UHGV virus genome: UHGV-0120184
Source of the DNA: a virus
Length of the DNA: 14,793 nt
Direction: 5' to 3' (one strand)
The notes beneath the pieces were generated by a model. The model saw only the letters and a list, made by a program, of their open reading frames with translations, had not been told where the DNA came from and searched no databases. The translations under genes were made by a program, and so were the position numbers. Positions 916-14,753 of this stretch are shown here, one piece after another. The stretch's first letter is position 1. Each line of letters starts with the position of its first letter.

Positions 916-3747
916 CTAATCACGATCGCGGAAACTGTTCATACCGCCGGATTGTCTGCGAATTTCTTCCCGTACCGCCTCCCCCACCATTCTGGCAAGG
1001 TCGCGAGGGTTCTGCGTAACCACGTTGTGAAGGTGAACATGAATATCACCACCGTACACAGGCGGCGGTTCAGGAGAGCGCGAAGGCCCCCGGGGTGTCG
1101 GGGACACCGGATCCCACCGCTTAACCTCCACAGGACGGGAAGAATCCGGGGAAACCGCCGGAGACACAGGCGAAAACGCTGGCATAAGCGGAAGCCCGGG
1201 TGCAACAGTCGGTTCATTCCACTGCCCGCGAACAGCCAGCGCACGGGGGAGATTTTTAAACACGATATCGCCAGGACCGATACGCTTGCGGGCTTCCTGA
1301 AGCATACCCGACGTATTACCCTCGATACCTTTGAGCCTGCGAAGAACGCCACTGGTGCCGTCGTTTATGACAGAAGGCTTGCCACCATTATTACCTTTAT
1401 CATTGCCATCAACTGGCTTAGCGGGCGAGATAATGGCATTAACATCCCCCTGAAGCAGGGAGAGCTTGCCCTGAAGAAGCGAAGCCCGCTGTGCATCCTC
1501 CAGTTTCCGGCGCGCCCTTTCAGCTTCATCAGGCAGCACGCCAAGCTTTTCCAGTACCCAGGCAAGTCCATCCATCAGCGCCTTCAGCGGCGTAAGCGCA
1601 AGCGATATCGCCCCACTAAGTACACGACCGAAGCTTTCTCCCGCAGACGTACACCGTTCAAGAGATTCGTTGCTGGCCTGAACAGGCGTGAGTAACCGGG
1701 TAAACCAGTCAAACACCGTGGACACCGCACCCGACACCAGATCAAACAACGGCGCAAACTGAGCAATACTTTCACGAACAGGCGCAAGGCCAGCCCACAG
1801 CGACCGGAATGTGCCGAGCATGAACGCCTTAACCTGTTCCCAGTGACGCCATATGAGCAGCGCCCCACCGGCAAGAGCAGCAATCACGAGACCAACAGGA
1901 CTGAGAAGACCGGAAAGCACCCCGCCCAGCACAGAAACCGCACCGGAGACCATCCCCCACAGTGCCGGAAGGCCGGACAGGCGAAGAGCAAGACCACCAA
2001 CACCGTTTGTAAGCGAGGATAGCCCGCCACCAAGAAGCGCAGAGCCAAGCTGAAGTTTTGCAAAAATCCCCGTCAGTAACCCACCTCCGACAGACAACGC
2101 ACCAATGGCCGTTGTGGCCGCAAGCACGCCACCCACGGTAAGGGTCAGCGTGCGTACAAGCTGCGGGTTTTCCTGAACCCACGACCTGAAGCGTTCACCC
2201 ACAGAAGCAACAGCCTGTACAAGCTCGCGGATATCATCAGTAACCAGCGACACAACATCACTGCGAATACCGGAGAAAATGCCGGACAGACGATCGGTGT
2301 CGCCGCCGAGGTTGTCACGCAGAACATCCCCCATTCGCCGGGCGGTTCCCTGAACCAGCCCCATACGGTCAGATACCGTTGCAAGCGACCGGAGAAAATC
2401 CGGGATCTGGTCAACAGCCAGATCTTCAATGGGTGTGCCGAACAGCGCTATCGCCGCATTGGCCCGTTCTGCAGGATCCTGAATCTGTAACAGACCTGAC
2501 GCGGTGCGACGCATCGCTTCACGCGCGGCCGCGCCGCCACTGGCGATCGCTGACGACATTCTTTCAGCGTTAAGGCCAATCAGCTCATAGGCTTCAACGC
2601 TGGATTTGGACATATCCGAGCCGCGAATACTGAATTCTTTGACAGCATCGCCGGTTTTATCCAGGGCGAATTTCCCCTGCTGCGCCATGCTGACAAGCAG
2701 CGTCATGGTTTCAGAGCCGGATAGCCCCATATTGCGGAAATGCGTGGAATACTCATGCAGAATTTCAGGAAGTTCGCCGCGCATTTCGGCAGACATTTTC
2801 TGCATCCCTGCCGCCATCAGGTCGACGGCCTCACCTGCATTTGCGGCAAGCCCGTTTTTCAGCATAATGCCAGCAGCCTGAACCTGTTCAGCCACATTAC
2901 CGCCGGTGACCTGAGCAAGATCGATTGCCTGCCGTGTCACCCTTTCCAGTTCTTCAGTCCCTACGGTACCCAGTGCGCCAAGCGTGCTTTGCGCCGCAGC
3001 TGCTGCTTCCGAAATCATCGCGATATCCGTGGCCGCACCTGACGCACGGATGCTCTGAATCATACGGCTGTAGCGCTGGCCGTCTTCTGCGCTGCCGCCA
3101 CTCTGTGCCGCAATGAGCGCACCCTGCCGTTGCTCTTCAACAACAGGTGCAACCGCGCGACCGGCAGCATACAGACCGGCACTGCCAGCCGCCATGGCAA
3201 CAGCACCGCGCTGACTGAGCTTACCGGCAATATCCTGAACACGGTCATAGCGTTGCTGCGCCTGCGTGACGCGTGCAAGCTGGCCCCGCTGGCGTTCGAG
3301 CTGATCGTTGTATTCCTGCGTCCGCCTGATTGCCCTCTCGACCGCACGGTTACTTCCGTCCGCCCGTATACCGTGAGATTCCAGTTCGCGACTGGCTTCG
3401 CTAAGTCGGGATTTGTGGAGGGAATAAACCGTATTAAGGCGATCAATCTTCACAGTCAGCGAGCGTATAGCTTCCTGCTGTTTTTCCGTTAGTGTTGTGC
3501 CTGTACGCTGGGCCTCCTGGAGGCGCTGAAGTCGCGCACGCGCCTCGTTCAGACTGTTTTCAGTCGAGGTCACCTGCTGGCGGGCACGGGAAAACGCATC
3601 ACTGCTTCGCTGGAGTGACTTAAGAGCGTTCTGCGTGGAGGAAAGAGATTCGGAAAGCGCGCCGGTCATTTCCCGGGCGCGCCTGACGGGTTGAGTGAGA
3701 CGGTCGACCGCAGTAAGGGCTACACGTATCTGGAGATTATTACTCAT
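916..3747 (-). CDS. T: Phage tail tape measure protein (P2 gpT-like)
   Basis: Long ORF with an N-terminal coiled-coil-like region (repeated Q/R/E/L heptad-like stretches), a Gly/Ala/Leu-rich hydrophobic middle segment and a Pro-rich C-terminus, all typical of tape measure proteins. ATG at 3747-3745 (MSNNLQIRV…) is preferred because the E' frame stop (3742-3740) overlaps it; the ORF track's GTG at 3801 is an alternative start. Confidence 0.85.
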   Translation of the reverse strand: MSNNLQIRVALTAVDRLTQPVRRAREMTGALSESLSSTQNALKSLQRSSDAFSRARQQVTSTENSLNEARARLQRLQEAQRTGTTLTEKQQEAIRSLTVKIDRLNTVYSLHKSRLSEASRELESHGIRADGSNRAVERAIRRTQEYNDQLERQRGQLARVTQAQQRYDRVQDIAGKLSQRGAVAMAAGSAGLYAAGRAVAPVVEEQRQGALIAAQSGGSAEDGQRYSRMIQSIRASGAATDIAMISEAAAAAQSTLGALGTVGTEELERVTRQAIDLAQVTGGNVAEQVQAAGIMLKNGLAANAGEAVDLMAAGMQKMSAEMRGELPEILHEYSTHFRNMGLSGSETMTLLVSMAQQGKFALDKTGDAVKEFSIRGSDMSKSSVEAYELIGLNAERMSSAIASGGAAAREAMRRTASGLLQIQDPAERANAAIALFGTPIEDLAVDQIPDFLRSLATVSDRMGLVQGTARRMGDVLRDNLGGDTDRLSGIFSGIRSDVVSLVTDDIRELVQAVASVGERFRSWVQENPQLVRTLTLTVGGVLAATTAIGALSVGGGLLTGIFAKLQLGSALLGGGLSSLTNGVGGLALRLSGLPALWGMVSGAVSVLGGVLSGLLSPVGLVIAALAGGALLIWRHWEQVKAFMLGTFRSLWAGLAPVRESIAQFAPLFDLVSGAVSTVFDWFTRLLTPVQASNESLERCTSAGESFGRVLSGAISLALTPLKALMDGLAWVLEKLGVLPDEAERARRKLEDAQRASLLQGKLSLLQGDVNAIISPAKPVDGNDKGNNGGKPSVINDGTSGVLRRLKGIEGNTSGMLQEARKRIGPGDIVFKNLPRALAVRGQWNEPTVAPGLPLMPAFSPVSPAVSPDSSRPVEVKRWDPVSPTPRGPSRSPEPPPVYGGDIHVHLHNVVTQNPRDLARMVGEAVREEIRRQSGGMNSFRDRD

Positions 3748-4275
3748 CGTTATGATTCCCGGTTCTGACGGCCGCCCGTTCTCGCCAGGCAACCAGTTCA
3801 CCGGGAGTCATCACAAAGATTTCAGAGGGCGACCAGTGAAATACAACGGCTATATCAGCGACAATATCTTCAACGTAATCAAAAGCAAGAAGCGTTACGC
3901 GCCGCCCGCCTCCTGCGCCTTCTTCGCTGACGAGGGAAGCAAAAAACCGACTGCCACCTCGTACAGTTTAAAGAAGTCTTCCGGGCACATTGACATAAGT
4001 GCCGCGCGGCTGAGGTGAGGTTCAGTTACGCGTTCCAGAAAAATGGCGGCAGCATCAACATCGGTGTTGAACAGGTCCGTCATGCGGATCCCTCGAAGCG
4101 AGCCCACCTGACGCGCAAGCGCCCCAATCTTCACGCTGGAAACCGTCTTATTACCGCAGACAACAGGAACCCTGAGATTAACCGTGTCATTTGCGATCGC
4201 CTCTGCGTTTTCCGTGTCGCCATTCGTCACAGCATCTGTGTCATTCGTCACGATATTTTCTTCAGTCTGATCCAT
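3740..4275 (-). CDS. E': gpE+E' fusion product made by programmed -1 ribosomal frameshift
   Basis: Minus-strand heptamer T TTT TTG (complement of 3946-3940) lies in the E zero frame (GGT TTT TTG). The -1 frame stays open from there for about 65 codons (…VTLLAFDYVEDIVADIAVVFHWSPSEIFVMTPGELVAWRERAAVRTGNHNDE) and ends at TAA 3742-3740, overlapping the tape measure ATG at 3747. This is the same arrangement as P2 E/E' and lambda G/GT. Confidence 0.6.
3895..4275 (-). CDS. E: Tail assembly chaperone gpE-like protein
   Basis: ORF between tail tube and tape measure whose C-terminal part (…GIRMTDLFNTDVDAAAIFLERVTEPHLSRAALMSMCPEDFFKLYEVAVGFLLPSS…) is gpE-like. It carries a T6G slippery site near its 3' end. 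The acidic N-terminal extension makes the true start uncertain. Confidence 0.75.
   Translation of the reverse strand: MDQTEENIVTNDTDAVTNGDTENAEAIANDTVNLRVPVVCGNKTVSSVKIGALARQVGSLRGIRMTDLFNTDVDAAAIFLERVTEPHLSRAALMSMCPEDFFKLYEVAVGFLLPSSAKKAQEAGGA
3940..3946 (-). promoter_or_regulatory. Slippery heptamer TTTTTTG for the -1 frameshift (E to E')
   Basis: X XXY YYZ motif in the zero frame of E, 15 codons before the E stop, with the -1 frame open downstream. Confidence 0.6.
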
Positions 4276-4326
4276 TATTTTTCTCCCGGGGCAACAGGAC
4301 GCCGCCCCTGTTATCAGATTTAACTA

Positions 4327-4839
4327 TCAGCCAAGCCCCAGCATGGAGCGGGTGCGGTCAGGAAGAACATCCTTACCATCAATGCGCCAGATGAAGTTCA
4401 GCACGTCGATTTCAATAACATCGCTGTTATCAACGCTGAGCTTGTACCAGGTGCATTTCATCGCATAGGTATGTTCGGTATCTTCACCCTGTTTGGCCTC
4501 GCCCTTGTCGATTTCGACAATGCGACCACGGGCTTCAATATCGACGTACTCAATCCCTTCTTCGGAATAGTATTCACCCGAGAAGCGAACACGCACGGCA
4601 TCAATACCGGCGGCGTATTTGGCAAAGATGTGACGATCGACGCCACCAACCGCAAAGGAGAGATCCAGTGCACCATCATCAAGACCGAGATCCACCGACG
4701 CAGAGCCTGGCATCCCCGCCCCGCGATACGACTCTGTTTTACGGGTCAGTTTTGGCGGGGTAAAAGACGCCACCTTGCCCAGCTTGTTGTCACCGTCCAC
4801 AAAGACGGTAAACACACGAAGTTTTTTTGGTACGGCCAT
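4327..4839 (-). CDS. FII: Tail tube protein (P2 gpFII-like)
   Basis: 170 aa with strong resemblance to P2 FII (…LGKVASFTPPKLTRKTESYRGAGMPGSASVDLGLDDGALDLSFAVGG…). GGAGG-type Shine-Dalgarno upstream. Start overlaps the sheath stop (TAATG at 4837-4841). Confidence 0.9.
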   Translation of the reverse strand: MAVPKKLRVFTVFVDGDNKLGKVASFTPPKLTRKTESYRGAGMPGSASVDLGLDDGALDLSFAVGGVDRHIFAKYAAGIDAVRVRFSGEYYSEEGIEYVDIEARGRIVEIDKGEAKQGEDTEHTYAMKCTWYKLSVDNSDVIEIDVLNFIWRIDGKDVLPDRTRSMLGLG

Positions 4840-6044
4840 TAGCTACCTCCAAGAGATGCAAAAGCAGAGCCAAAGAACTCGTCGGTAAACGTCTGATAGA
4901 GTTCCATACACTCCATCGGCGGAACAGGCGTGTATTTGTAGCGAATACGCACAATGCCCTGACGAAGACTGGTTGTGCCGTTGTCGATGATATCGAACCA
5001 GCACTCAGCCCCGATGAGTTTTCCGGCTGTCACCAGTGCATCCAGCTTTGCCTTGATAGCGCTCACGGCATCCTTAGCATTGGCAGGCGTAAGCGGTGAA
5101 TCCACTATCTGAAGTTGCGCCTCCGCAATGGTGTCAGCCAGTTGCTGCGCCGTACGTGTGTACACCTCAAAGATGTACTCCGCAGTTTCCGGCGTACGGT
5201 TACCCCAGAAACGGAAGGAGCCGTCGCCCTGGTGAATAAGAGTGGTCACCTCGCTATTGTTCAGCGTGTTGGCATCGCTGTTTTCATCCTGAAGTGACCA
5301 GGAAACAGACGCTGACACCCCAAGAACATTTTTCACAGGCATGTTAGAAAGGGAGCGATGCCAGCCCTGTTCATGGTCGAGTCGGGCACGAAGACCGCAC
5401 GCATACGCCGCAGCCGGGAAGGTTTCGTTTTTACCGGACACCGGGTTGAACGCAATGAAATCAGGCCACAGAAGCATGATTTCGCGACCGGAAATCTTTT
5501 TACGGAACGCAATAGCATCGGACGGTTTTGTGCAGCCAGGGCAGCCGGAATACGCAAATGCGCGCATTTTTCCGGCAACAGTCACCAGTGCAGCCGTGAC
5601 AGCATCCGATTCAAGGCCCGGAGCGGCAAGAATGCGGGGTCGGTAACCAATACCTTCCATCTGTTCGGCAACCAGAAGCGCCTGCATACCGCTGTAGCTT
5701 CCGTCTTCTTCCGTGGTACCAATGACCAGTTGATCCTGTGTTTTATTCTCAGCCCCCTCTTTTGCCGCCTCCACGCGAACGACAATCACCCGTGTACTGA
5801 CCTGGTCAGATATCGCTTTAAGGGCCTTATAAAGCGTGCCCGCTTTCCCGGCCTTCCCCAGAACAGAAGATACACGGGTAATCAGCACAGGCTTGTTAAG
5901 GGGGAACTGCCCGGTATCCGCATCATCTGCAACGGCAACAATACCAATGACGCTGGAATCAACGTCATTAATGGCCGTCACAAGGTCGGTATTCTCCGTG
6001 ACGCGCACACCGTGAAATCGTTTTTCAGCCATACGATTCACCAT
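4839..6044 (-). CDS. FI: Contractile tail sheath protein (P2 gpFI-like)
   Basis: 401 aa with motifs matching P2 FI from memory (HGVRV…FPLNKPVLIT…GTLYKALKAISDQ…WPDFIAFNPVSG…FRFWGNRT…YKYTPVPPMEC). The start could instead be the in-frame ATG at 6032. Confidence 0.9.
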   Translation of the reverse strand: MVNRMAEKRFHGVRVTENTDLVTAINDVDSSVIGIVAVADDADTGQFPLNKPVLITRVSSVLGKAGKAGTLYKALKAISDQVSTRVIVVRVEAAKEGAENKTQDQLVIGTTEEDGSYSGMQALLVAEQMEGIGYRPRILAAPGLESDAVTAALVTVAGKMRAFAYSGCPGCTKPSDAIAFRKKISGREIMLLWPDFIAFNPVSGKNETFPAAAYACGLRARLDHEQGWHRSLSNMPVKNVLGVSASVSWSLQDENSDANTLNNSEVTTLIHQGDGSFRFWGNRTPETAEYIFEVYTRTAQQLADTIAEAQLQIVDSPLTPANAKDAVSAIKAKLDALVTAGKLIGAECWFDIIDNGTTSLRQGIVRIRYKYTPVPPMECMELYQTFTDEFFGSAFASLGGS

Positions 6045-6107
6045 CAGTTGTGTTTATGCTCGCCTGAATAATCCACCATTGGCGCACAGCCCTCACCTGA
6101 TGCGGGC

Positions 6108-6125
6108 TGTGGGGATTTTTTTACA
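6108..6125. promoter_or_regulatory. TGT-N12-ACA dyad, candidate Ogr-dependent late-promoter activator site in the divergent FI/D region
   Basis: Exact TGT(6108-6110)-N12-ACA(6123-6125) in the 141-bp region between the FI start (6044, minus) and the D start (6186, plus). The dyad centre is about 55 bp from plausible transcription starts on either side, matching the known architecture of P2/P4 late promoters. Confidence 0.4.
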
Positions 6126-6185
6126 ACAGAGCCGGACAGAAACGACAAGGTACGCGTGGGATGATACGCACACGGGAGGGATATC

Positions 6186-7331
6186 ATGAGCATCACTGAA
6201 TCAGTAACACATCACATCAACAGCGCACTGGATGCAGCGGAAGATACCGTTAGGGTGCCAGACTTCACTATCACACTGGAAGGGAAAGATGCCAGCCTGA
6301 AGAACATCACGCAGCGCATCATGAGCCTGACCATGACAGACAACAGGGGTTTTGAGGCTGACAGGGTGACACTGGAAATCGACGACGCCGACGGCGGGGT
6401 GGTACTTCCGGAGCGCGGAACACGATTATCGCTGGCGATGGGATGGAAAGGTGAAAGCCTCACTCGCAAGGGGGCGTTTGTGGTGGACGAAGTGAGCCAC
6501 GAAGGTCCGCCGGATAAGCTGACCATATCCGCGAACAGTGCGGATTTTCGCGAAGAGTTTAACGTGAAACGCGAAGTCTCCTGGCATGACGTGACCGTTG
6601 AGCGTGTGGTATCTGCCATCGCGCACCGTTACGGACTGAAAGCACAAATCAGCGAAATGCTGATGAATATCGAAATCGACCATGCAGACCAGACAGAGGA
6701 AAGCGACATCTCGTTCCTCACGCGTATGGCTGACATGCTGGGTGCAATAACCACCGTAAAAAACGGGTGCCTGCTGTTCATTCTGCCGGGTGGCGGTGTG
6801 ACAGCCAGCGGGCGCGCCCTCCCCTCATTCGCCCTGACCCGCTCGGATGGCGACAGTCATCGCTTTCGCATTGCTGACAGAAAAGCCTATACCGGAGTGA
6901 AAGCTTACTGGCTGGATTTAAAGTTCGGCCAGAAGAAGGCCGTGAACGTGAAAAAGCGAAACGCGAAAACCACACAGAAGCCGGAGAAAAGCAGTTCACG
7001 GGAGGGTGGATACATGGAAGGCGCAGAAGGCAATGTGTATGTGCTGAGAAAAACCTACCCGAACGAAGAAGCCGCGCGTCGCGCAGCTGCCGCACGCTGG
7101 CAGCAACTTCAGCGGGGTGCAGCAGAATTCAGCATCACGCTGGCGCGCGGACGCGCCGACCTGTATCCGGAGATGCACGGCACGGTATCCGGGTTCAAGA
7201 GCGACATTGACAATCAGGACTGGATTATTTCGCGCATTGAGCACGTCATCGACGACAGCGGCTTCACCACCAGACTGGAGCTGGAAGCAAAAATCGCAGA
7301 CTGGATAGCAGAGCGCGCCACGACTGGCTAG
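6186..7331 (+). CDS. D: Phage tail protein D (P2 gpD-like late control / tail formation protein)
   Basis: 381 aa with gpD-family hallmarks (PDFTITLEGKDASLKNITQRIMSLTMTDNRGFEADRVTLEIDDADGGVVLPERG…FLTRMAD…ISRIEHVIDDSGFTTRLELE). GGGAGG Shine-Dalgarno 5 nt upstream of the ATG. Confidence 0.9.
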   Translation: MSITESVTHHINSALDAAEDTVRVPDFTITLEGKDASLKNITQRIMSLTMTDNRGFEADRVTLEIDDADGGVVLPERGTRLSLAMGWKGESLTRKGAFVVDEVSHEGPPDKLTISANSADFREEFNVKREVSWHDVTVERVVSAIAHRYGLKAQISEMLMNIEIDHADQTEESDISFLTRMADMLGAITTVKNGCLLFILPGGGVTASGRALPSFALTRSDGDSHRFRIADRKAYTGVKAYWLDLKFGQKKAVNVKKRNAKTTQKPEKSSSREGGYMEGAEGNVYVLRKTYPNEEAARRAAAARWQQLQRGAAEFSITLARGRADLYPEMHGTVSGFKSDIDNQDWIISRIEHVIDDSGFTTRLELEAKIADWIAERATTG

Positions 7332-7372
7332 AATGAGCGCGAGCCCACCCCGTTTCAGCCAGGGGGACCATC

Positions 7373-7675
7373 ATGCATCCTTGCCCATACTGCGGAGCAA
7401 GTACCCGCACCAGAACAAGCCGCGACGCCAACGATACAGGAACAATCAGGGAGAAATATTACCAGTGCAACAACATTGAATGCAGCGCCACCTTTGTGAC
7501 GCACGAGTTTGTCGTGAGAACCGTATGCCGTCCGCAACCCACCGAAGAACGGGGAGTCGTCCCCGCAGACGCTTTCAAATCATGCCACCGGGGAAGGGAT
7601 CAACTCAGCCTCCCCCTGGGCGATTGCGCCTCCCAGTCAAAAACTGTACATTACGCGCGGGTGCCTTTCGGCTGA
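7373..7675 (+). CDS. ogr: Ogr/Delta-family zinc-finger late transcription activator
   Basis: N-terminus MHPCPYCG…TSR…REKYYQCNNIECSATFVTHE has the C-x2-C…C-x4-C zinc-finger layout and close resemblance to P2 Ogr. It lies immediately downstream of D, as in P2. The C-terminal tail is longer than P2 Ogr (100 vs about 72 aa). Confidence 0.8.
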   Translation: MHPCPYCGASTRTRTSRDANDTGTIREKYYQCNNIECSATFVTHEFVVRTVCRPQPTEERGVVPADAFKSCHRGRDQLSLPLGDCASQSKTVHYARVPFG

Positions 7676-7805
7676 CGGCTGGAAGGATTACCTGAAGGCC
7701 GGATGTGGAAAGGCCCCGGAAAACATCTCTGTTTAGCCGAGGCCCTAATCTACATATCTTTAGCAAGTAGAAGGTTAGCGCCTCTTTGAAAAAGGAGCAA
7801 GCGCT

Positions 7806-7946
7806 ATGCCGCAAAAAACGATCATCGTGAGCATTTTATGCTTAACCATGTTGTTGACCGTCTGGATGATACATCGTTCACCATGTGAATTCAGACTTAA
7901 CATCATGTGGTCAGAATTTGCGGCGTTCTTGCAGTGTAAACCGTAA
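7806..7946 (+). CDS. hok: Hok/Gef/PndA-family type I toxin (small membrane peptide)
   Basis: 46-codon ORF not in the supplied track: MPQKTIIVSILCLTMLLTVWMIHRSPCEFRLNIMWSEFAAFLQCKP. It has one transmembrane helix followed by the conserved Hok-family C-E-x-R and E-x-AAF motifs and is very close to PndA as I recall it. AGGAG Shine-Dalgarno at 7793-7797, 8 nt before the ATG. Confidence 0.75.
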   Translation: MPQKTIIVSILCLTMLLTVWMIHRSPCEFRLNIMWSEFAAFLQCKP

Positions 7947-7954
7947 GAAACCGC

Positions 7955-7976
7955 AGCGGGGGTGAAAGCCCCCGCT
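7955..7976 (+). other. Stable 8-bp GC-rich hairpin in the hok 3' region
   Basis: AGCGGGGG-TGAAAG-CCCCCGCT, 9 nt after the hok stop. hok-family mRNAs carry extensive 3' structure (the fold-back inhibition element); the specific role here is inferred. Confidence 0.4.
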
Positions 7977-8040
7977 ATCCGGTTGCCGAAGGTTCGGTCG
8001 AAAGCCGCACCCGTGCATGCAAGTGACAAAGAAAAAACAA

Positions 8041-8075
8041 AGCCCGCAGCGTAAAAACTGCGGGCTTTTTTATTC
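8041..8075 (+). terminator. Rho-independent terminator closing the hok locus
   Basis: Stem AGCCCGCAG / CTGCGGGCT with an 8-nt loop, followed by TTTTTTATT; preceded by an A-run, so it could also work on the minus strand. Confidence 0.6.
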
Positions 8076-8112
8076 ACATACCGAAGGTGTGGTAACTGCC
8101 TGGGTTCAGACC

Positions 8113-8136
8113 AAAAAAAGCCCCATAAAATGGGGC
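8113..8136 (-). terminator. Candidate minus-strand rho-independent terminator
   Basis: Plus strand reads A7-GCCCCA-TAAAA-TGGGGC; on the minus strand this is a GC stem followed by a T7 run. It lies about 300 nt downstream of the minus-strand membrane-protein operon. Confidence 0.4.
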
Positions 8137-8281
8137 TGAAGATTCTGTAAGGAATTTCACAGCAATGAGATTCTAGTCTCTTCCAATGATATATGAGTCT
8201 TCAGCCTGAATCAATGGGGCATGACTGTGAATCCACCGACGATCAAAACTTGCACAATGCCTGAAGTTGAGTTAGAAAAGT

Positions 8282-8342
8282 ACCGGGCGCGATATCCGGT
8301 TTATTTTTTGTTGCTGTGTTTTGCCTCGTGCCGGATATCGCG
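8282..8342. repeat. 12-bp perfect inverted repeat CGCGATATCCGG separated by a 31-nt T-rich spacer, with a nested terminator-like hairpin
   Basis: CGCGATATCCGG at 8288-8299 and its reverse complement CCGGATATCGCG at 8331-8342. The nested hairpin ACCGG-N9-CCGGT (8282-8300) is followed by TTATTTTTTG. Confidence 0.5.
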
Positions 8343-8432
8343 TCCACCGTTTTTCTGATGATTCTTATGAAATCGTACTTTATTGATTTACTGCCATCCT
8401 GGTTTGTCTTTTTATGTTCATTATTGCGACAG

Positions 8433-8828
8433 TCATTTCCTGTTTCTGGTGATGTTTTGATAAAAGTGAAAGAATAAAACGATCATTGCAGAAGGTATTG
8501 CTAAAACCATACATATCATTATATAAACAAGATGAAAATGATATATACCATAAGACCAGAAAAAAGGTTTTTTCCAGAATGATATGGATGTGTATTTTAG
8601 TGTAATTGTTTTTGTCAGGTATATTGAACAAGGAAGAGCCAGGCCACTGAGTATCAGAAATAAGTCAACTTTTATCGATGCTTCTGTTGGTGTGTCATAT
8701 ATAAGATGCAATATGGATATTATAATGGGGCACATTCCCCACAGGATATTTTTGAAATAGAATTTCCGGTTCATATGTTTATGCTCTTTGGTTTTATCCC
8801 GGGAATTGGCGCTTTGTTTTTTATTCAT
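8433..8828 (-). CDS. Hypothetical small membrane protein (3-4 TM helices); second gene of the operon, translationally coupled
   Basis: 131-aa ORF whose ATG (8828-8826) lies 5 nt upstream of the upstream gene's stop (8823-8821), giving an 8-nt overlap. Hydrophobic segments ILWGMCPIIISILHLIY, VDLFLILSGLALPCSIYL and YGIYHFHLVYIMICMVLAIPSAMIVLFFHF. Same AT-rich composition. Confidence 0.55.
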   Translation of the reverse strand: MNKKQSANSRDKTKEHKHMNRKFYFKNILWGMCPIIISILHLIYDTPTEASIKVDLFLILSGLALPCSIYLTKTITLKYTSISFWKKPFFWSYGIYHFHLVYIMICMVLAIPSAMIVLFFHFYQNITRNRK

Positions 8829-9492
8829 GAACGTTTTCGTTGTTTAATAACCATGGGGTATTATGATTATCCTTTATTTTTGATATGTAATTGTCAATAG
8901 TGGATTTCGTTTCATTATTGTGGTTATAGTAATCATGAAGAGTGCAAAACACATCATCTTTTATTGTGGCGATTAATGGGGCTTGTGTGAGGGTAAAATA
9001 TAAAGAACGATTACTTAGTGTCCTGAAATAAATTTTTTCGCCAATGACCAGATCGGTGTTCATTATATTGTAGCCTATTTCAAATATATTGTTTGATGGC
9101 ATGTGTAATACATATGTGGGGTATTTGTTGTGTTTTTTCATTAAATAATAAATAAAATCAGATACAGGCATCTGTTTTAGTTTTTTTTGCATCTTCCTTA
9201 TGTGTTGTGACATTAATATCATTTTCGAGAGAATGCATAAGAGACTAAACAAGAGATTAAATACTATGTTCAGTACTATCAGAGTAACAAACAGGCCAAT
9301 GCTCCTTAGCGCTGAAAATATATTGTCATTGTAAATATACTGGAATGTATATCCGGCTGATAAAAATGCCAATATATATAACACTATGTCTGTTTTATTT
9401 CGCTTTTTTATTTTGTAGGTTATTGCTGATTTTAAGAATAAGATGGCAATAAGAGCAGTGATAACCCAGAAAAATATAACGGAAACTTCCAT
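8821..9492 (-). CDS. Hypothetical multi-pass membrane protein (about 3 N-terminal TM helices plus a ~130-aa hydrophilic C-terminal domain); first gene of an AT-rich two-gene operon
   Basis: 223-aa ORF in a region of very low GC compared with the flanks. Hydrophobic stretches VSVIFFWVITALIAILFL, IVLYILAFLSAGYTF and IGLFVTLIVLNIVFNLLFSLLCIL. AAAGG Shine-Dalgarno-like motif upstream of the ATG at 9492. I recognise no family. Confidence 0.6.
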   Translation of the reverse strand: MEVSVIFFWVITALIAILFLKSAITYKIKKRNKTDIVLYILAFLSAGYTFQYIYNDNIFSALRSIGLFVTLIVLNIVFNLLFSLLCILSKMILMSQHIRKMQKKLKQMPVSDFIYYLMKKHNKYPTYVLHMPSNNIFEIGYNIMNTDLVIGEKIYFRTLSNRSLYFTLTQAPLIATIKDDVFCTLHDYYNHNNETKSTIDNYISKIKDNHNTPWLLNNENVHE

Positions 9493-9690
9493 AATTATAC
9501 CTTTATCGTGTTTTCAGGGAGGTAATTTATCATTGTGCTGATATGCATGTAAATACATGCATTATCTGTTTCTTATATTCTTTTTATGAAGTTACTGATT
9601 AATTTATATTAAAACAACACATTCATAATGAAATCAACATGTTCATATGGTTGACGGCAGATTTCTCTTTTTGTTAACCTGCATCTGCAT

Positions 9691-9939
9691 TAACTGTCGC
9701 TTCGGCGACCACCAATGTTCCATAGTGGCCTGTGAGGAACGCCTTCGGGTGGCCCATGTCGCTCCGGCGACCACCAATGCTCCATATGACCTGTGAGGAG
9801 CGCCTTCGGGTGGTCAGTTTTACACCTCCGTAGCCTGAAAGGAGCTGTGAGTACTGAAGGGAAACATCCCTGATGTATGGGCAAATCTGCACACCTTTGA
9901 GAGCAGATGTCACTACGGTTTTACGTGATGATGAAGGCA
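9691..9939 (+). repeat. Direct repeat copy A (~249 bp) bounding the recombinase module; begins with two tandem ~61-nt units
   Basis: Near-identical to 12484-12733 with only a handful of mismatches. Internal tandem units at about 9695-9756 and 9757-9817, each starting with the hairpin GTCGC-T(T/C)CG-GCGAC. Confidence 0.85.
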
Positions 9940-10682
9940 TTCCGGATTCCGTTCCGGTACTTTTATTTTTTCTCAGCAGACAGGCATAAAAACGCCTTTA
10001 AAATCTGCGTCTTAAGATATTTTCTGACTTTCCGCATGAGCTTCTTATGACTGTGCGCACGGCATAAGACCATTTGAAATTTGGTCGCTTGCGTGTGCAT
10101 GTGGAGTTTGAAGCTGTGCGGCGTCACTTGCGTGCGACCGAAGGGAACACCAAGTGACGCCGCGGCCATCTGCCCTGAAGGCAGCATCACGTAAGGTCTG
10201 GCAGAAAATCGTCGCTCGTGACAAGCGTCCTGATGCTCGTTTTGTCGCTCTGACAACGTCTTTCGGTGACGTATCCACGCCTTTCCGGCGCGTCCGTTTT
10301 CACACGGACGGCCACGCCGGAATGTCTTCTTAAACTTCGTAATACATGAGAGGTAAGTGTATTAACTGACTGAAATAAAGGAATAAAAATGAAAAATCGT
10401 TCTGATGTCGGGAGGCGTCATCGTAAGGTGACGGGGAGTATTCCTCAACAATCGCCCTGGTGCACAGGTAGCGAACTCCTGTAAGAACTCAACATGTGCA
10501 AGCTCTGCTACATCGACATCAAACGAGCCAGGAAGGCGAACAACCGCGTTACAGAGCCGTCCGTGATGACGAAAAACTAACAATATCAACGAACTTTTCT
10601 GTTTACCGGAAGGGCTGCGTATGCAGTTTTACTTTGTGAACGGAAGGGGGCTGCATCTGATTTTTACAGGGAGAATGACTTT

Positions 10683-11600
10683 ATGGCCCGGAAATCGTCA
10701 CGTTCTAAAGTTGAACTGTTTCGCAAGTCTTTCATCTCACTTGCCCGTGAGTGTGGTGGCAGTTACGCAACAACAGCTGACAGAATGAGAATTGCAAAGT
10801 ACTTCCTGAATTATTTACGTGAAAATGGAATTAAACTTCGCCAGACGAGCAGTATTAAAACCAGACATATTTCTGGTTACCTTCTCAGCAGGAAAGCAGC
10901 GGGTATTTCTCACCGGACTATTCAGAATGAACGGGCGGTTATGCGTGCCATTTTAGAAAAAGATGGACGACTTAAAATCGCAGATCCTTCTAACCCATTA
11001 TTGAGTAATGAAGCGCTCGGCCTAAAGGATACATGCCGTGATGGAAAGAAAATAGCATTGTCACCGGATGAATTCTGGAAAGCATTTGCTAAAGTGGAAA
11101 AAAAGAATCCTGGTGTGGCAGCTGCAATGCAGCTTTCTTATGTTCTGGGTTTAAGAACAAAAGAAGCCGTTCAGTCATGTAAGTCTGTTCAGTCATGGCT
11201 ACGGGAACTGAATTCAGGGTGCGATTCTCTTTCGGTCGTTTTTGGTACGAAAGGTGGAAGACCAAGAAATACCACAATTATTGACAGAGATGCGGTAAGA
11301 CATGCTTTGCTTTATGCTCAAAAAATAATGGATGAACACGACGGAAAACTTATTGACCGTCCAAATATAAAACAGGCTATCAATGTTTTTCGTTATCATG
11401 CCCGTAAAGCGGGATTGTCAGGAGTGAAATCTCCGCACAGTATGCGTTATCATTTTTCTCAGGAAGCCAGAAAATTTTATCGAAAAAATGGATATGGAGA
11501 GTCGGAAATCTACGCTCGTGTTTCTATGGATCTTGGCCATGGTGACGGAAGAGGTCGTTATGTAAAACAGGTTTATTTTAACGGTTCTGATGAAAGTTGA
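10683..11600 (+). CDS. Short tyrosine-recombinase-like protein (integrase family)
   Basis: 305 aa. Catalytic-domain-like order and spacing of residues: R in LGLRTKEA, K in TKGGRPR, H-x-x-R in HSMRYH, H in LGHGDG and a C-terminal Y in RYVKQVY. N-terminal region resembles a core-binding (SAM-like) domain. Assignment is by motif reading only. Confidence 0.7.
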   Translation: MARKSSRSKVELFRKSFISLARECGGSYATTADRMRIAKYFLNYLRENGIKLRQTSSIKTRHISGYLLSRKAAGISHRTIQNERAVMRAILEKDGRLKIADPSNPLLSNEALGLKDTCRDGKKIALSPDEFWKAFAKVEKKNPGVAAAMQLSYVLGLRTKEAVQSCKSVQSWLRELNSGCDSLSVVFGTKGGRPRNTTIIDRDAVRHALLYAQKIMDEHDGKLIDRPNIKQAINVFRYHARKAGLSGVKSPHSMRYHFSQEARKFYRKNGYGESEIYARVSMDLGHGDGRGRYVKQVYFNGSDES

Positions 11601-11603
11601 TAT

Positions 11604-12341
11604 TTAAAATGAATCTGGAGGATATGTGTTTTTGTTAATTTCGGTTATGATGATTTCTGATGCGCGATTACACATATCTTCATCAAAATACCCAATATGA
11701 CATTCATGAATGTGACAATTCAGTTTTCTGGATAGCCATATATTTGCCTCGTTACGGGATATGTTGGCTCTTTGCTGATAATTGTCAAAAAGTTTACGTA
11801 CTTTTGTTCTGAGTATTCTCAGGTTTTCTTTAGCCGGAGTACCTAATGGTCTTCCTGAGTTTTTATGGCATCCAACCCATGCATTGCATGGGGGACAAAT
11901 CCAGTAATATTTGTTTTCTGTCGCGGCTGAAATGGAAAATGGCATGAGAGCCCCTTTTATAAGATTCGTCTTATTTCCACAGTATGGGCAGATAACAATT
12001 GGTCGGACATCTGCAATATTCAGTGATGTATAAGTCAGTCGTTCATTTTTAACGATGTTTCTCTTTCCGCAATGGGTGAGAACATGCTTTATTGTATCTA
12101 ATTCTTCTCGTAGTATTTTGGAACTGACGCCAGTGCGATAACGTTGTTGAAAATAGCATTCAATATGACGTAGTTTTATGCTATTTGCTGAGCTTATCTG
12201 TATATTGGCATCTTTAAGAAATGAAGCAAGTCTTCTGGCTCTTCCCGTATATACCAACATATCTTCTGGCGTCGGGGCGCATGCTTTGGCTATTCTGAGT
12301 AGTTCATCTTTTAATTTTTTGTATTTCGATTTCATTTTCAC
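11604..12341 (-). CDS. Integrase-N-terminal-like domain fused to a Cys-rich zinc-ribbon-like domain; no recombinase catalytic motifs
   Basis: 245 aa. The N-terminal ~100 aa are paralogous in layout to the neighbouring recombinase N-terminus (…SSANSIKLRHIECYFQQRYRTGVSSKILREELDTIKHVL vs …TSSIKTRHISGYLLSRKAAGISHRTIQNERAVMRAIL). The C-terminus has CPYCG…CPPC…CH…CHIHECHIG…C Cys/His clusters. It is convergent with the recombinase gene, with stops 3 bp apart. Start is GTG 12341 or ATG 12335. Confidence 0.65.
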   Translation of the reverse strand: MKMKSKYKKLKDELLRIAKACAPTPEDMLVYTGRARRLASFLKDANIQISSANSIKLRHIECYFQQRYRTGVSSKILREELDTIKHVLTHCGKRNIVKNERLTYTSLNIADVRPIVICPYCGNKTNLIKGALMPFSISAATENKYYWICPPCNAWVGCHKNSGRPLGTPAKENLRILRTKVRKLFDNYQQRANISRNEANIWLSRKLNCHIHECHIGYFDEDMCNRASEIIITEINKNTYPPDSF

Positions 12342-12483
12342 ATCTCTCTTACAGGTTCATAAAGAGTGTTACTGAATTAAAAAATATCAAATTGAGCTGG
12401 CCTTGTCAGTCAGCTGTAGGTTATTACCATAGCCACGACAACAACTTGAAGTTTTATGTTGTTTATGATTATATTTTAGACGC

Positions 12484-12733
12484 TAACTTGTCGCTCCGGC
12501 GACCACCAATGTTCCATAGTGGCCTGTGAGGAACGCCTTCGGGTGGCCCATGTCGCTCCGGCGACCACCAATGCTCCATATGACCTGTGAGGAGCGCCTT
12601 CGGGTGGTCAGTTTTACACCTCCGTAGCCTGAAAGGAGCTGTGAGTACTGAAGGGAAACATCCCTGATGTACGGGCAAATCTGCACACCTTTGAGAGCAG
12701 ATGTCACCACGGTTTTACGTGATGATGAAGGCA
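12484..12733 (+). repeat. Direct repeat copy B (~250 bp)
   Basis: Second copy of the sequence at 9691-9939 in the same orientation. Differences: one extra T near the start, T to C in the first hairpin loop, and two single-base changes near 12668 and 12707. Sequences diverge completely after ..GATGAAGGCA. Confidence 0.85.
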
Positions 12734-12866
12734 CTTTGTATACAATGTGACTATGAGTTGTCTCTGGTCTTCTTAAGCGCATCGTGCTGACGCATTGATG
12801 TGTTCACCTGACGGATTTTCCAGTCCGTCAGGGCGGAACGTCCGTCTTTTTCATTCGGAGGTTCCG

Positions 12867-13268
12867 ATGTTTATACCACTTTTGTTACGTGCAGATATGC
12901 GCATAACGCCTTTCTTTCATCTTCTCAGACAATGTCTGTTTAATCAGAAGCGTTGTGTTCACCCACAACAGCCCTGGTCCGCTCCACAACTGAGGCATCT
13001 GTACTGCACTCCGTGGTTTATTAACGCCACCGGCAATCTGTCAGTCAGAGCCTGCATTGTTTCCACCAACGGTGCATTGCGACACTGCTTTGAGTTCCGT
13101 GAAGGCTCTCACAGCCGTGAATATCGTTACTGGTTTGAGGCACTTCCGCTGTCTGTCGTGCGGTTTAATGTCTTTACCGGTCGAATATCTGCTCGCCGCA
13201 CGCTTTCTGCTGCCTCCCGTATGGCCGTGCAGCTTACTTCTTTTCGCTATCGCTTCGGTCTTCGCTGA
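12867..13268 (+). CDS. Hypothetical basic Cys/Arg/Phe-rich protein (uncertain gene)
   Basis: ATG at 12867 preceded by GGAGG (12857-12861) at 5-nt spacing; 133 codons. The composition is unusual and no family is recognised, so it may be non-coding. Confidence 0.3.
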   Translation: MFIPLLLRADMRITPFFHLLRQCLFNQKRCVHPQQPWSAPQLRHLYCTPWFINATGNLSVRACIVSTNGALRHCFEFREGSHSREYRYWFEALPLSVVRFNVFTGRISARRTLSAASRMAVQLTSFRYRFGLR

Positions 13269-13380
13269 AGCCTGTTGAACGGTCGTCATGACCGTTGAAA
13301 GGTTTATCACACAACGCCCGGATCTGTCTGACCGTACCACGCGTGCGCGATGACAAATCTGAGTTTTCCTTAACCCGTCC

Positions 13381-13417
13381 GGGACCGCTCCCGTTCGGGG
13401 ACGGTCCCGCTGTTTTT
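13381..13417 (+). terminator. GC-rich hairpin plus T-run immediately upstream of the next gene's RBS (terminator or attenuator-like)
   Basis: GGGACCG (13381-13387) pairs with CGGTCCC (13402-13408), with internal TCCC/GGGA pairing, followed by TTTTT (13413-13417) and then AGGAG (13421-13425) and ATG 13433. Confidence 0.45.
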
Positions 13418-13432
13418 ATCAGGAGATTGTTT

Positions 13433-13813
13433 ATGGGACTCGATATTTTTTTCCTTGGGCGTGATCGTGTTACCGACGCGGTAGTATCGGTACCGGAAAC
13501 GCGGGAAGTGGGTTACTTTCGCAAGGTTAACCCACTGATTGCCTGGTTTGAGACGCATTGTGGACCGGTTGAAAATGCCGTGGAGCGTCCGGTTTCCAGA
13601 ACGGAACTGGAGGCACTACTGAGCGATCTTGAATGCCTTACGCCGGAGAACTGCCGGGAATTCTTCCCCACAACAGAAGGATTCTTTTTTGGTTCTCAGG
13701 AGTATGACCAGTATTACTGGAAGGATGTTGAGATCGTGAAATCGTGGGTCAGAAGCACGCTTGATTCGTTTGATTTTGAACGAAAAATACTGTTGCTCTG
13801 GGCATGGTGGTAA
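13433..13813 (+). CDS. Hypothetical protein
   Basis: Start at ATG 13433 chosen (AGGAG 8 nt upstream) over the track's 13295, which would read through the hairpin and T-run. 126 aa ending …SWVRSTLDSFDFERKILLLWAWW. No family recognised. Confidence 0.55.
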   Translation: MGLDIFFLGRDRVTDAVVSVPETREVGYFRKVNPLIAWFETHCGPVENAVERPVSRTELEALLSDLECLTPENCREFFPTTEGFFFGSQEYDQYYWKDVEIVKSWVRSTLDSFDFERKILLLWAWW

Positions 13814-13913
13814 TTATTTTTCTGTCCTTGTTTTTAACCTTATTACCCTGTCGGGAACATGTGTCCCGTAGGGCAGGTGTGTTCCCGTAATTTTTTGTAT
13901 CTGAGGTGAACAC

Positions 13914-14393
13914 ATGAATAGTCTGTTAATACTCCTTTACGTTGTTGTATGCCGTGCCTGCACCATTCTTCGGGTAATCGCACCAGTGTCGTCTGTCCGT
14001 GCGTGGTGTGAGTATCAACTGGAAGGTATGACGATACTTCGTGATGCGTACAGCTCGCTGGCTAAGGCGGCTGGAATGCAGAATGATGCATTTGAATATC
14101 TTGAAAGTATTGCTCGTCATCTGGGCTACGAAAGCGGTGGTGACCAACTGAAATCAGGACTTTTCCGGCCGTTTCTGTGGCATATACGTGCGAAAGGCCA
14201 CAGGCTGGGAGCTGTCATGGAAATGGCGGTATGGCAGGCATGGAAGAATGGCTGTAACGATGTCTGCAATCCATGGGAGGATGTCTACAATCCATGGGAC
14301 CGTGGATGGAACGATGGCTGGACTGAATGTCTGGATCAACGTATAGCCGGTCTCCTGAAGGCGGTCTGTATTGACTTTTCCGACGCCGACTGA
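13914..14393 (+). CDS. Hypothetical protein with hydrophobic N-terminus and Trp/Asn/Asp-rich repeats (NPWED…NPWDRGWNDGW)
   Basis: 159-aa ORF with GAGGTG Shine-Dalgarno-like motif 6 nt upstream of the ATG. No family recognised. Confidence 0.5.
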   Translation: MNSLLILLYVVVCRACTILRVIAPVSSVRAWCEYQLEGMTILRDAYSSLAKAAGMQNDAFEYLESIARHLGYESGGDQLKSGLFRPFLWHIRAKGHRLGAVMEMAVWQAWKNGCNDVCNPWEDVYNPWDRGWNDGWTECLDQRIAGLLKAVCIDFSDAD

Positions 14394-14427
14394 ACGGTTT
14401 TTCTTTTACTTACTGTACCGTGTACCT

Positions 14428-14508
14428 GCGTCGGTGGCGTGGGTCAGCGATACGCTGAAGACGTTTGATTTTGAGCGTCATTCACTGGTGATGCTGGCGT
14501 TGTGGTAA
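14428..14508 (+). pseudogene. Orphan 3' fragment paralogous to the C-terminus of the 13433-13813 gene
   Basis: The translation ASVAWVSDTLKTFDFERHSLVMLALW* aligns with KSWVRSTLDSFDFERKILLLWAWW* at the end of the 13433-13813 protein. There is no start codon or Shine-Dalgarno, and it begins right after the stop of the 13914-14393 gene. Confidence 0.4.
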
Positions 14509-14600
14509 GTCCGGCCAGTCTGATTTTCGTTATTAATTTAACCGTATGGTGCATGTTCACCGTACGGGGAGCATGCATCTTTTTTATGGAGCGTGCTCTT

Positions 14601-14753
14601 ATGAAAACGAAAAAACATACTTCATGTCCCGTGAACAAAACCCCGGAGCGTGACCTGTATCAGCTGGTGACGGACAGGGTGATTGAGGCCATCGAAAAGG
14701 GCGTAGCCCCCTGGCAACGTCCATGGCGCTCAGTACGGTGTCAGCGCCAGTGA
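14601..14753 (+). pseudogene. ArdC-N-like (DUF1738-type) antirestriction protein N-terminal fragment, prematurely terminated
   Basis: MKTKKHTSCPVNKTPERDLYQLVTDRVIEAIEKGVAPWQRPW matches the conserved DLYQ-VTD-II-LE-G-PW-PW N-terminal motif of ArdC-like proteins as I recall it. The ORF stops after 50 codons and all three forward frames have stops within 14751-14770. Confidence 0.4.

Follow-up and report, generated by a model that had tools for sequence, protein, structure and literature searches.

A probable orphan colicin-immunity gene and an independent membrane-protein gene in the AT-rich cargo of an Escherichia coli integrative conjugative element

The viral genome UHGV-0120184, a stretch of 14,793 nucleotides (nt) referred to below as the window, carries beside its P2-like prophage part an AT-rich segment with two open reading frames (ORFs) on the reverse strand. 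ORF1 encodes 223 amino acids (aa) and the longest frame of ORF2 (8433-8828) encodes 131, and the 8-nt string ATGAATAA is common to the end of the former and the start of the latter. An initial annotation of the window had described these two same-strand, overlapping ORFs and a segment far more AT-rich than its flanks, and we confirm both: the G+C content (GC) is 0.30-0.37 over ~8200-9600, compared with 0.50-0.62 in the prophage part to the left and 0.47-0.50 just to the right. It had also proposed that the segment was horizontally acquired, which is supported, the segment lying within an integrative conjugative element (ICE), and had read the two ORFs as a translationally coupled membrane-protein module, possibly for phage exclusion, abortive infection or immunity. 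Our analysis suggests, with a probability that we put at roughly 0.6, that ORF2 is instead an orphan bacteriocin immunity gene carried by the ICE and that ORF1 is an independent membrane-protein gene. The features are listed in Table 1.

Neither protein has a match above the curated cut-offs in scans of Pfam, NCBIfam, PADLOC and PHROGs, and the initial annotation had recognised no family for either of them. This still holds for ORF1, whose family has no name, but sequence comparison shows ORF2 to be distantly homologous to the immunity proteins of the colicin E1/Ia type. Pfam gives it a match below threshold to PF03526, "Colicin E1 (microcin) immunity protein", a PHROG match (also not above the curated cut-offs) covers its full length, and close variants are named "colicin immunity protein" in some NCBI records. 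Searching PLSDB with tblastn, we found 1,187 plasmids with a gene that is ~31% identical to residues 12-116 of ORF2 and bears a colicin Ia or E1-family immunity annotation, and at the loci inspected the matching gene is convergent to a colicin Ia-type gene. BLASTP with ORF2 from Met-19 onwards gave an E-value of 1e-8 to the colicin Ia immunity protein (ColIa Imm), with MNRKFYFKNILWG of ORF2 aligned to MNRKYYFNNMWWG, 6e-8 to the colicin E1 immunity protein (ColE1 Imm) and 7e-10 to an orphan immunity protein of Klebsiella, the best pairwise match. The ColE1 Imm sequence used scores 115 bits on PF03526 and is thus a valid family member. The homology to these characterised proteins is significant over the full length, as an hhalign comparison of four ORF2 alleles with five known or annotated members gave 96.9% probability (E-value 1.6e-10) over 101 columns from end to end.

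The immunity proteins of the E1 type, which act against colicins E1, Ia and K and pyocin S5, have three transmembrane (TM) helices where those of the A type have four, and they work in the cytoplasmic membrane through helix-helix contact with the toxin (PMC10906532). ORF2 resembles them in length, 113 aa from the start codon argued for below vs 111-113, and so falls in the range of ~110-115 aa expected of the type. It shares their N-terminal motif MN/SRK-YY/FYF-N, their three hydrophobic helices, predicted here from hydrophobic segments at residues 7-25, 33-54 and 75-106, and the (L/V)(A/S)(I/L/V)P motif in the last helix. It differs from them in its low identity and sub-threshold Pfam score, in its location on a chromosomal ICE or genomic island rather than a Col plasmid, and in being preceded by an unrelated membrane-protein gene on the same strand. 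It also has no convergent colicin gene: its neighbours are hok and ORF1, and a tblastn search with colicin Ia against 7600-10100 returned nothing better than an E-value of 1.6. With neither a colicin gene nor a remnant of one nearby, ORF2 is an orphan.

We found the same DNA in 607 of 5,426 complete E. coli genomes, 13 of them at identities of at least 99%, 572 at 90-95% and 22 at 80-90%, and 587 of the 607 carriers keep at least 80% of the 8000-9800 query. Three allele groups were compared, represented by this window, the O111 strain 11128 (L002) and CP091394 (L007). Both frames are open in all three, and the Nei-Gojobori ratios of nonsynonymous to synonymous substitution (dN/dS) are 0.26-0.36 for ORF2 and 0.35-0.65 for ORF1 (0.5-0.7 in its membrane part and 0.22-0.6 in its C-terminal domain). 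Both are real genes under purifying selection, which is looser on ORF1. The synonymous divergence between the window and CP091394 is 0.30 for ORF1 and 0.087 for ORF2, an inequality suggesting that the two genes have separate histories. RefSeq lists ORF1 as a "hypothetical protein" in the records of E. coli S19-651 and O111:H- 11128, and in most rows of the 607-genome search this single hypothetical protein stands beneath the match. ORF2 is probably a systematic missed gene call.

The overlap, from which the initial annotation had deduced translational coupling, is present only in the allele of this window. In CP091394 the longest ORF2 frame is exactly 113 aa and begins with MNRKFYF, separated from the ORF1 stop by 46 nt. 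A 1-nt indel in the O111 allele places ORF1 and ORF2 in the same frame, and there the frame is closed by a stop codon 16 codons ahead of the MNRKFYF methionine, with no start codon in between. Three different N-terminal extensions, unlike in sequence and frame, occur among the database variants, and every alignment to colicin immunity proteins opens at Met-19 of ORF2, opposite Met-1 of the partner. Of the two candidate start codons, the one at 8774 is preceded at a distance of 9 nt by an AAGAG Shine-Dalgarno-like motif, whereas the ATG at 8828 lacks such a sequence. On this evidence the real ORF2 most likely begins at Met-19 of the 131-aa frame, giving a protein of 113 aa, which is also the length of the colicin E1 immunity protein. 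The sequence between the two ATGs is then probably untranslated and intergenic, and carries the AAGAG motif. The 8-nt overlap would thus be an accident of one allele, which leaves coupling by overlap unsupported.

ORF1 belongs to a small family. An exhaustive phmmer search against 1.84 billion representative sequences gave 27 matches, ~16 of them full-length (210-228 aa, 24-43% identity), and a profile search enlarged the family with proteins that are all "hypothetical" and have no Pfam domain; where a source is named, it is E. coli, Serratia or Atlantibacter. Among 50,697 phage records there is no ORF1, and from plasmids it is nearly absent, the only three matches being E. coli records at 86-87% identity. 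In the alignment the three TM helices are variable, while the C-terminal domain of ~120 aa is well conserved and has the motifs WYVLY.PS.N..EIG.N, PVIGKKFY.KTL.GR and FY..N..TK..V.NYI..IK....PW. AlphaFold predicts long helices at residues 3-30, 33-55 and 61-107 followed by a hydrophilic domain, and the hydropathy profile agrees. The initial annotation had called both products membrane proteins, and this stands with three helices plus a hydrophilic part for ORF1 and three hydrophobic segments for ORF2. The predicted local distance difference test score is 83 for the whole of ORF1 and 87.5 for the domain alone, whose predicted template modelling score is 0.81. In this model the domain is a small beta-barrel-plus-helix. 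It is predicted to be cytoplasmic, since by the positive-inside rule the lysine-rich loop after the first TM helix and the basic stretch after the third would face the cytoplasm. A Foldseek search against BFVD found nothing at E < 0.1, and the domain has no informative fold match.

Two other assignments for ORF1 were tried and rejected. Residues 150-170 (~8983-9045), with GKKFY.KTL.GR, resemble the beta1-beta2 hairpin of ubiquitin (QIFVKTLTGK; KTLxGR/K), and in a profile search of the PDB this motif produced inflated matches to polyubiquitin and to a 6,124-aa repeat protein. A ubiquitin-like domain is rejected on the grounds that the similarity covers 26 residues only, that the score is inflated by the polyubiquitin repeats and that the fold search does not support it. 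The TM helices are not an immunity-like domain either, as hhalign gave a probability of 0.1% against the immunity family.

The pairing of ORF1 with ORF2 is seen only among E. coli alleles. An ORF1 relative with 43% identity (P0014) occupies the same slot in a related ICE and is followed by a soluble 105-aa protein unrelated to ORF2. Another (P0018) has no credible downstream partner, and three more are solitary: P0016 has tandem tRNA genes on one side and a type I-F cas operon on the other, P0036 lies between argA and recD in Serratia, and P0046 comes after rplS with no partner. The plasmid relatives of ORF2 never have an ORF1 neighbour at the loci inspected. The initial annotation had proposed conservation of the pair as a unit as a check, and it fails here: beyond the E. 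coli alleles, ORF1 relatives stand alone or beside an unrelated soluble protein. Without an immunity-like partner in the distant relatives the pair is not an obligate module, and ORF1 is an independent gene. Our best guess is that it serves some other envelope self-protection or cargo function and is not a partner needed by ORF2.

The AT-rich segment is cargo of an ICE and not of the P2-like prophage. Positions 7622-14738 of the window match part of the E. coli S19-651 genome at 99.65% identity. There the segment is flanked on the left by ICE conjugation genes (TIGR03749/52/51/57/56 and TraG_N), an L31 paralogue and hok, and on the right by STAXI, an integrase, ArdC, LPD29 and DUF1281. The same gene order is repeated around a 78% allele. 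An ICE with these TIGR037xx "integrating conjugative element" transfer genes is of the pKLC102/PAPI-1/ICEEc2 kind. Between two related ICEs TraG_N is 88% identical whereas ORF1 and the integrase are 43% each, which places ORF1 in a cargo region of fast turnover. In O111 the segment lies between urease genes and a tellurite-resistance island ridden with insertion sequences, with a TraT remnant nearby, and this decayed version of the ICE is part of the urease/tellurite island of enterohaemorrhagic E. coli (EHEC).

The initial annotation had placed the two genes next to a prophage end, which is literally true of the window but incidental. Positions 1300-8076 match a prophage of E. coli strain EC2 at 98.4%, where the order is ogr, hok and then tRNA-Leu, and the prophage end has neither ORF1 nor ORF2. 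The EC2 prophage without the pair, the phage records without ORF1 and the location of the segment inside the ICE of S19-651 all speak against prophage cargo (a moron). In a three-way alignment the window ceases to follow the prophage and begins to follow the ICE at 7647-7708. This junction is within a hok locus of ~430 bp common to the two elements, and the Hok protein WP_001135720.1 is identical in them. The adjacency of prophage and ICE is either a product of homologous recombination or an assembly join at this shared hok repeat.

ORF1 and ORF2 are probably in one transcription unit that would start in the AT-rich DNA at 9500-9600 and end near 8130. A 46-nt gap without a terminator, promoter-like sites upstream of ORF1 and the terminator-like hairpin at 8137-8119 make such co-transcription plausible. 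A consensus scan gave putative sigma-70-like sites at 9590-9561 and 9553-9524. The -35 of the second is overlapped by a hairpin at 9543-9562 with an 8-bp stem, ATGCATGT-AAAT-ACATGCAT, which could be an operator or a terminator of the + strand.

Table 1. Features in and around the AT-rich segment (window coordinates)
Feature	Position	Strand	Basis or remark
AT-rich trough with both genes inside	8200-9650		GC 0.30-0.37
ORF1, 223 aa, three predicted N-terminal TM helices and a conserved domain of ~120 aa	8821-9492	-	small unannotated Enterobacterales family
ORF2, 113 aa from the conserved Met, putative divergent orphan homologue of E1-type (three-TM) immunity proteins	8433-8774	-	tblastn, BLASTP, hhalign
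5' extension of the ORF2 frame, source of the apparent overlap ATGAATAA	8775-8828	-	allele comparison
AT-rich region upstream of ORF1 with sigma-70-like sites, putative AAAGG ribosome-binding site and hairpin	9493-9690	-	consensus scan and sequence reading
Terminator-like hairpin followed by a T-run, ~300 nt downstream of ORF2	8119-8137	-	consensus match only
hok/sok-type locus (hok coding sequence 7806-7946), common to the P2-like prophage and the ICE	7647-8076	+	alignment
STAXI RNA motif, right border of the AT-rich segment	9695-9868	+	first copy of a 245-nt direct repeat

We propose that ORF2 would sit in the inner membrane with its three helices and neutralise an incoming colicin-like toxin by helix-helix contact with its channel-forming domain inside the membrane, and that the host might thereby survive a bacteriocin of others' making. 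Several points weigh against this reading. ORF2 scores only 15.6 bits on PF03526, for which the gathering cut-off is 25, although the model has 55 positions only and the bona fide ColIa Imm itself reaches only 30.9 bits; the NCBIfam models gave no match. The identity of ORF2 to the characterised immunity proteins is only 26-31%, from which its specificity is not inferable. The cognate toxin was not seen: among the colicin operons in PLSDB no immunity gene exceeds 60% identity to ORF2, and a pattern scan of one genome per species gave no relatives. Some strains can do without an intact ORF2, as the truncated or frameshifted variants P0010 and P0013 show, and the Prokaryotic Genome Annotation Pipeline (PGAP) makes no ORF2 call in the two RefSeq records inspected, those of S19-651 and O111:H- 11128. 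The function of ORF1 is a guess, and the co-transcription, expression and topology of the two genes are inferred only.

Some of these points would fit a decaying relic of a lost colicin operon, in which ORF2 has no present function and the segment is inert AT-rich DNA silenced by H-NS. The missing cognate colicin gene, the absent PGAP calls, the broken variants and a GC of 30%, typical of silenced DNA, all favour it. Yet the ORF2 frame is intact in the three allele groups with dN/dS of 0.26-0.36, nearly all carriers keep most of the query, and plasmid-borne orphan immunity genes appear to be kept by selection (PMC12546727); we regard the relic as unlikely. The initial annotation came close with the word immunity as far as ORF2 is concerned, but we found no pointer to phage defence. 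A two-gene membrane module for phage exclusion or abortive infection, acting for instance through membrane depolarisation when a phage infects, would agree with AT-rich mobile-element cargo adjoining hok and a prophage, with two small membrane proteins as products and with an ORF1 that has no known function. It is very improbable to us when the other evidence is considered. The defense-system annotation that had been suggested as a check was negative, as no family of PADLOC-DB v2 matched ORF1 or ORF2 even at E <= 1; ORF1 does not occur in the phage records, the pair is not conserved as a unit, and the proximity of the prophage stems from the join in the shared hok locus. The known relatives of ORF2, moreover, prevent depolarisation by an incoming toxin, which is the reverse of the depolarisation the initial annotation had envisaged.

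ORF1 could also be considered as an entry-exclusion factor of the ICE in the manner of TraS/Eex, which would recognise the TraG of a donor and block redundant transfer, with ORF2 as unrelated cargo. In related ICEs the slot close to the TraG_N gene is likewise filled by its relatives, and this slot is hypervariable beside a well-conserved TraG_N. A TraT remnant lies nearby in O111, and a predicted cytoplasmic domain follows the three TM helices. ORF1 does look like TraS/Eex in being a small, predicted inner-membrane protein whose gene lies close to traG at a variable site of a conjugative element, but the likeness is one of context only: by neither sequence nor fold does it resemble a known exclusion protein. 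Exclusion genes of that type would be expected only in conjugative elements and in linkage with mating-pair genes, whereas ORF1 is so linked in the ICEs and yet has stand-alone relatives at core-chromosome sites without conjugation genes (Serratia argA-recD, after rplS, and beside the tRNA and type I-F cas genes). We therefore hold entry exclusion to be rather improbable. A toxin-antidote pair that stabilises the island, one protein being a membrane toxin and the other its neutraliser, is suggested by two adjacent same-strand genes for membrane proteins beside the addiction locus hok; as ORF1 relatives occur without an ORF2-like partner and ORF2 relatives without ORF1, and as neither protein matches a known toxin family, we give it hardly any credence. 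A bolder reading, which we also consider unlikely, would make the ORF1 family a new class of inner-membrane self-protection proteins (immunity or exclusion factors), whose cytoplasmic domain would adopt a small beta-barrel-plus-helix fold not described before. Its recruitment next to the E1-type immunity homologue in E. coli ICEs would have formed a composite shield against a membrane-targeting toxin or incoming DNA.

Orphan immunity genes for pore-forming colicins are common on E. coli plasmids (PMC12546727, Nat Commun 2025). That survey covered plasmids only and counted only matches more than 99% identical to known immunity genes. Like the genes it reports, ORF2 is a toxin-less immunity homologue on a mobile element, presumably directed against the toxins of competitors; it differs in being deep-branching, in residing on an ICE or genomic island and in being unannotated in the two RefSeq records. 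The Klebsiella orphans named "colicin E1 family microcin immunity protein" are likewise orphan E1-family homologues. They are 119 aa long and are found on IncFIB phage-plasmids beside integrase and toxin-antitoxin genes, whereas ORF2 is 24-27% identical to them and has another host element and other neighbours. Orphan immunity on plasmids is thus known already, and what is found here is a deep-branching member on an ICE or genomic island.

The segment is present in ~1/9 of the complete E. coli genomes, including O157:H7 and O111 EHEC, where it belongs to the urease/tellurite island. If ORF2 does protect against a pore-forming bacteriocin, it would exemplify "immunity gain" on a chromosomal ICE and would extend the recent plasmid-only surveys of orphan immunity. 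The colicin insensitivity of some pathogenic lineages might then be partly explained. ORF1 represents a small, confidently modelled family without a fold match and shows no mark of a new kind of system. Our findings on the two genes do not overturn current understanding.

Several minor observations concern the surrounding DNA. Downstream of ORF2, the + strand region 8221-8477 is an 85-aa ORF in CP091394, convergent to ORF2 and overlapping its 3' end. In the window it is broken into ORFs of 45 and 53 aa, and it is probably non-coding. An imperfect inverted repeat (8274-8299 and 8331-8356) lies within it.

To the right, a 245-nt direct repeat with 99% identity (9695-9939 and 12489-12733) carries a STAXI RNA motif in each copy (Rfam scores of 78 and 75 bits). 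An integrase-domain gene (10683-11600, +), a zinc-finger protein gene (11604-12341, -) and an EFASI RNA (10397-10525) are located between the copies. CP091394 has one copy of the repeat and lacks the entire 9752-12806 module, an indication that recombination between the repeats inserted or removed it. Antisense to the STAXI motifs are an 88-aa ORF (9674-9940, -), listed in RefSeq as hypothetical protein WP_016237203.1, and a 99-aa ORF (12483-12782, -). These two coincide with a repeated structured-RNA motif and are probably not genes. A literature search on STAXI and on the protein accession numbers found nothing useful.

The L31 paralogue of the ICEs, which lies outside the window, has extra FGR repeats near its C-terminus in one locus (L001, 11218-11505), with FGRFGRFGRFGRFGRF vs one copy in the other (L010, 7860-8123). 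Near the right end of the window, a 71-nt direct repeat with 70% identity (13743-13813 and 14438-14508) forms the 3' ends of two + strand ORFs, whose C-termini, ...FDFERKILLLWAWW and ...FDFERHSLVMLALW, are alike. These ORFs may be small paralogous genes of the ICE region upstream of ArdC.

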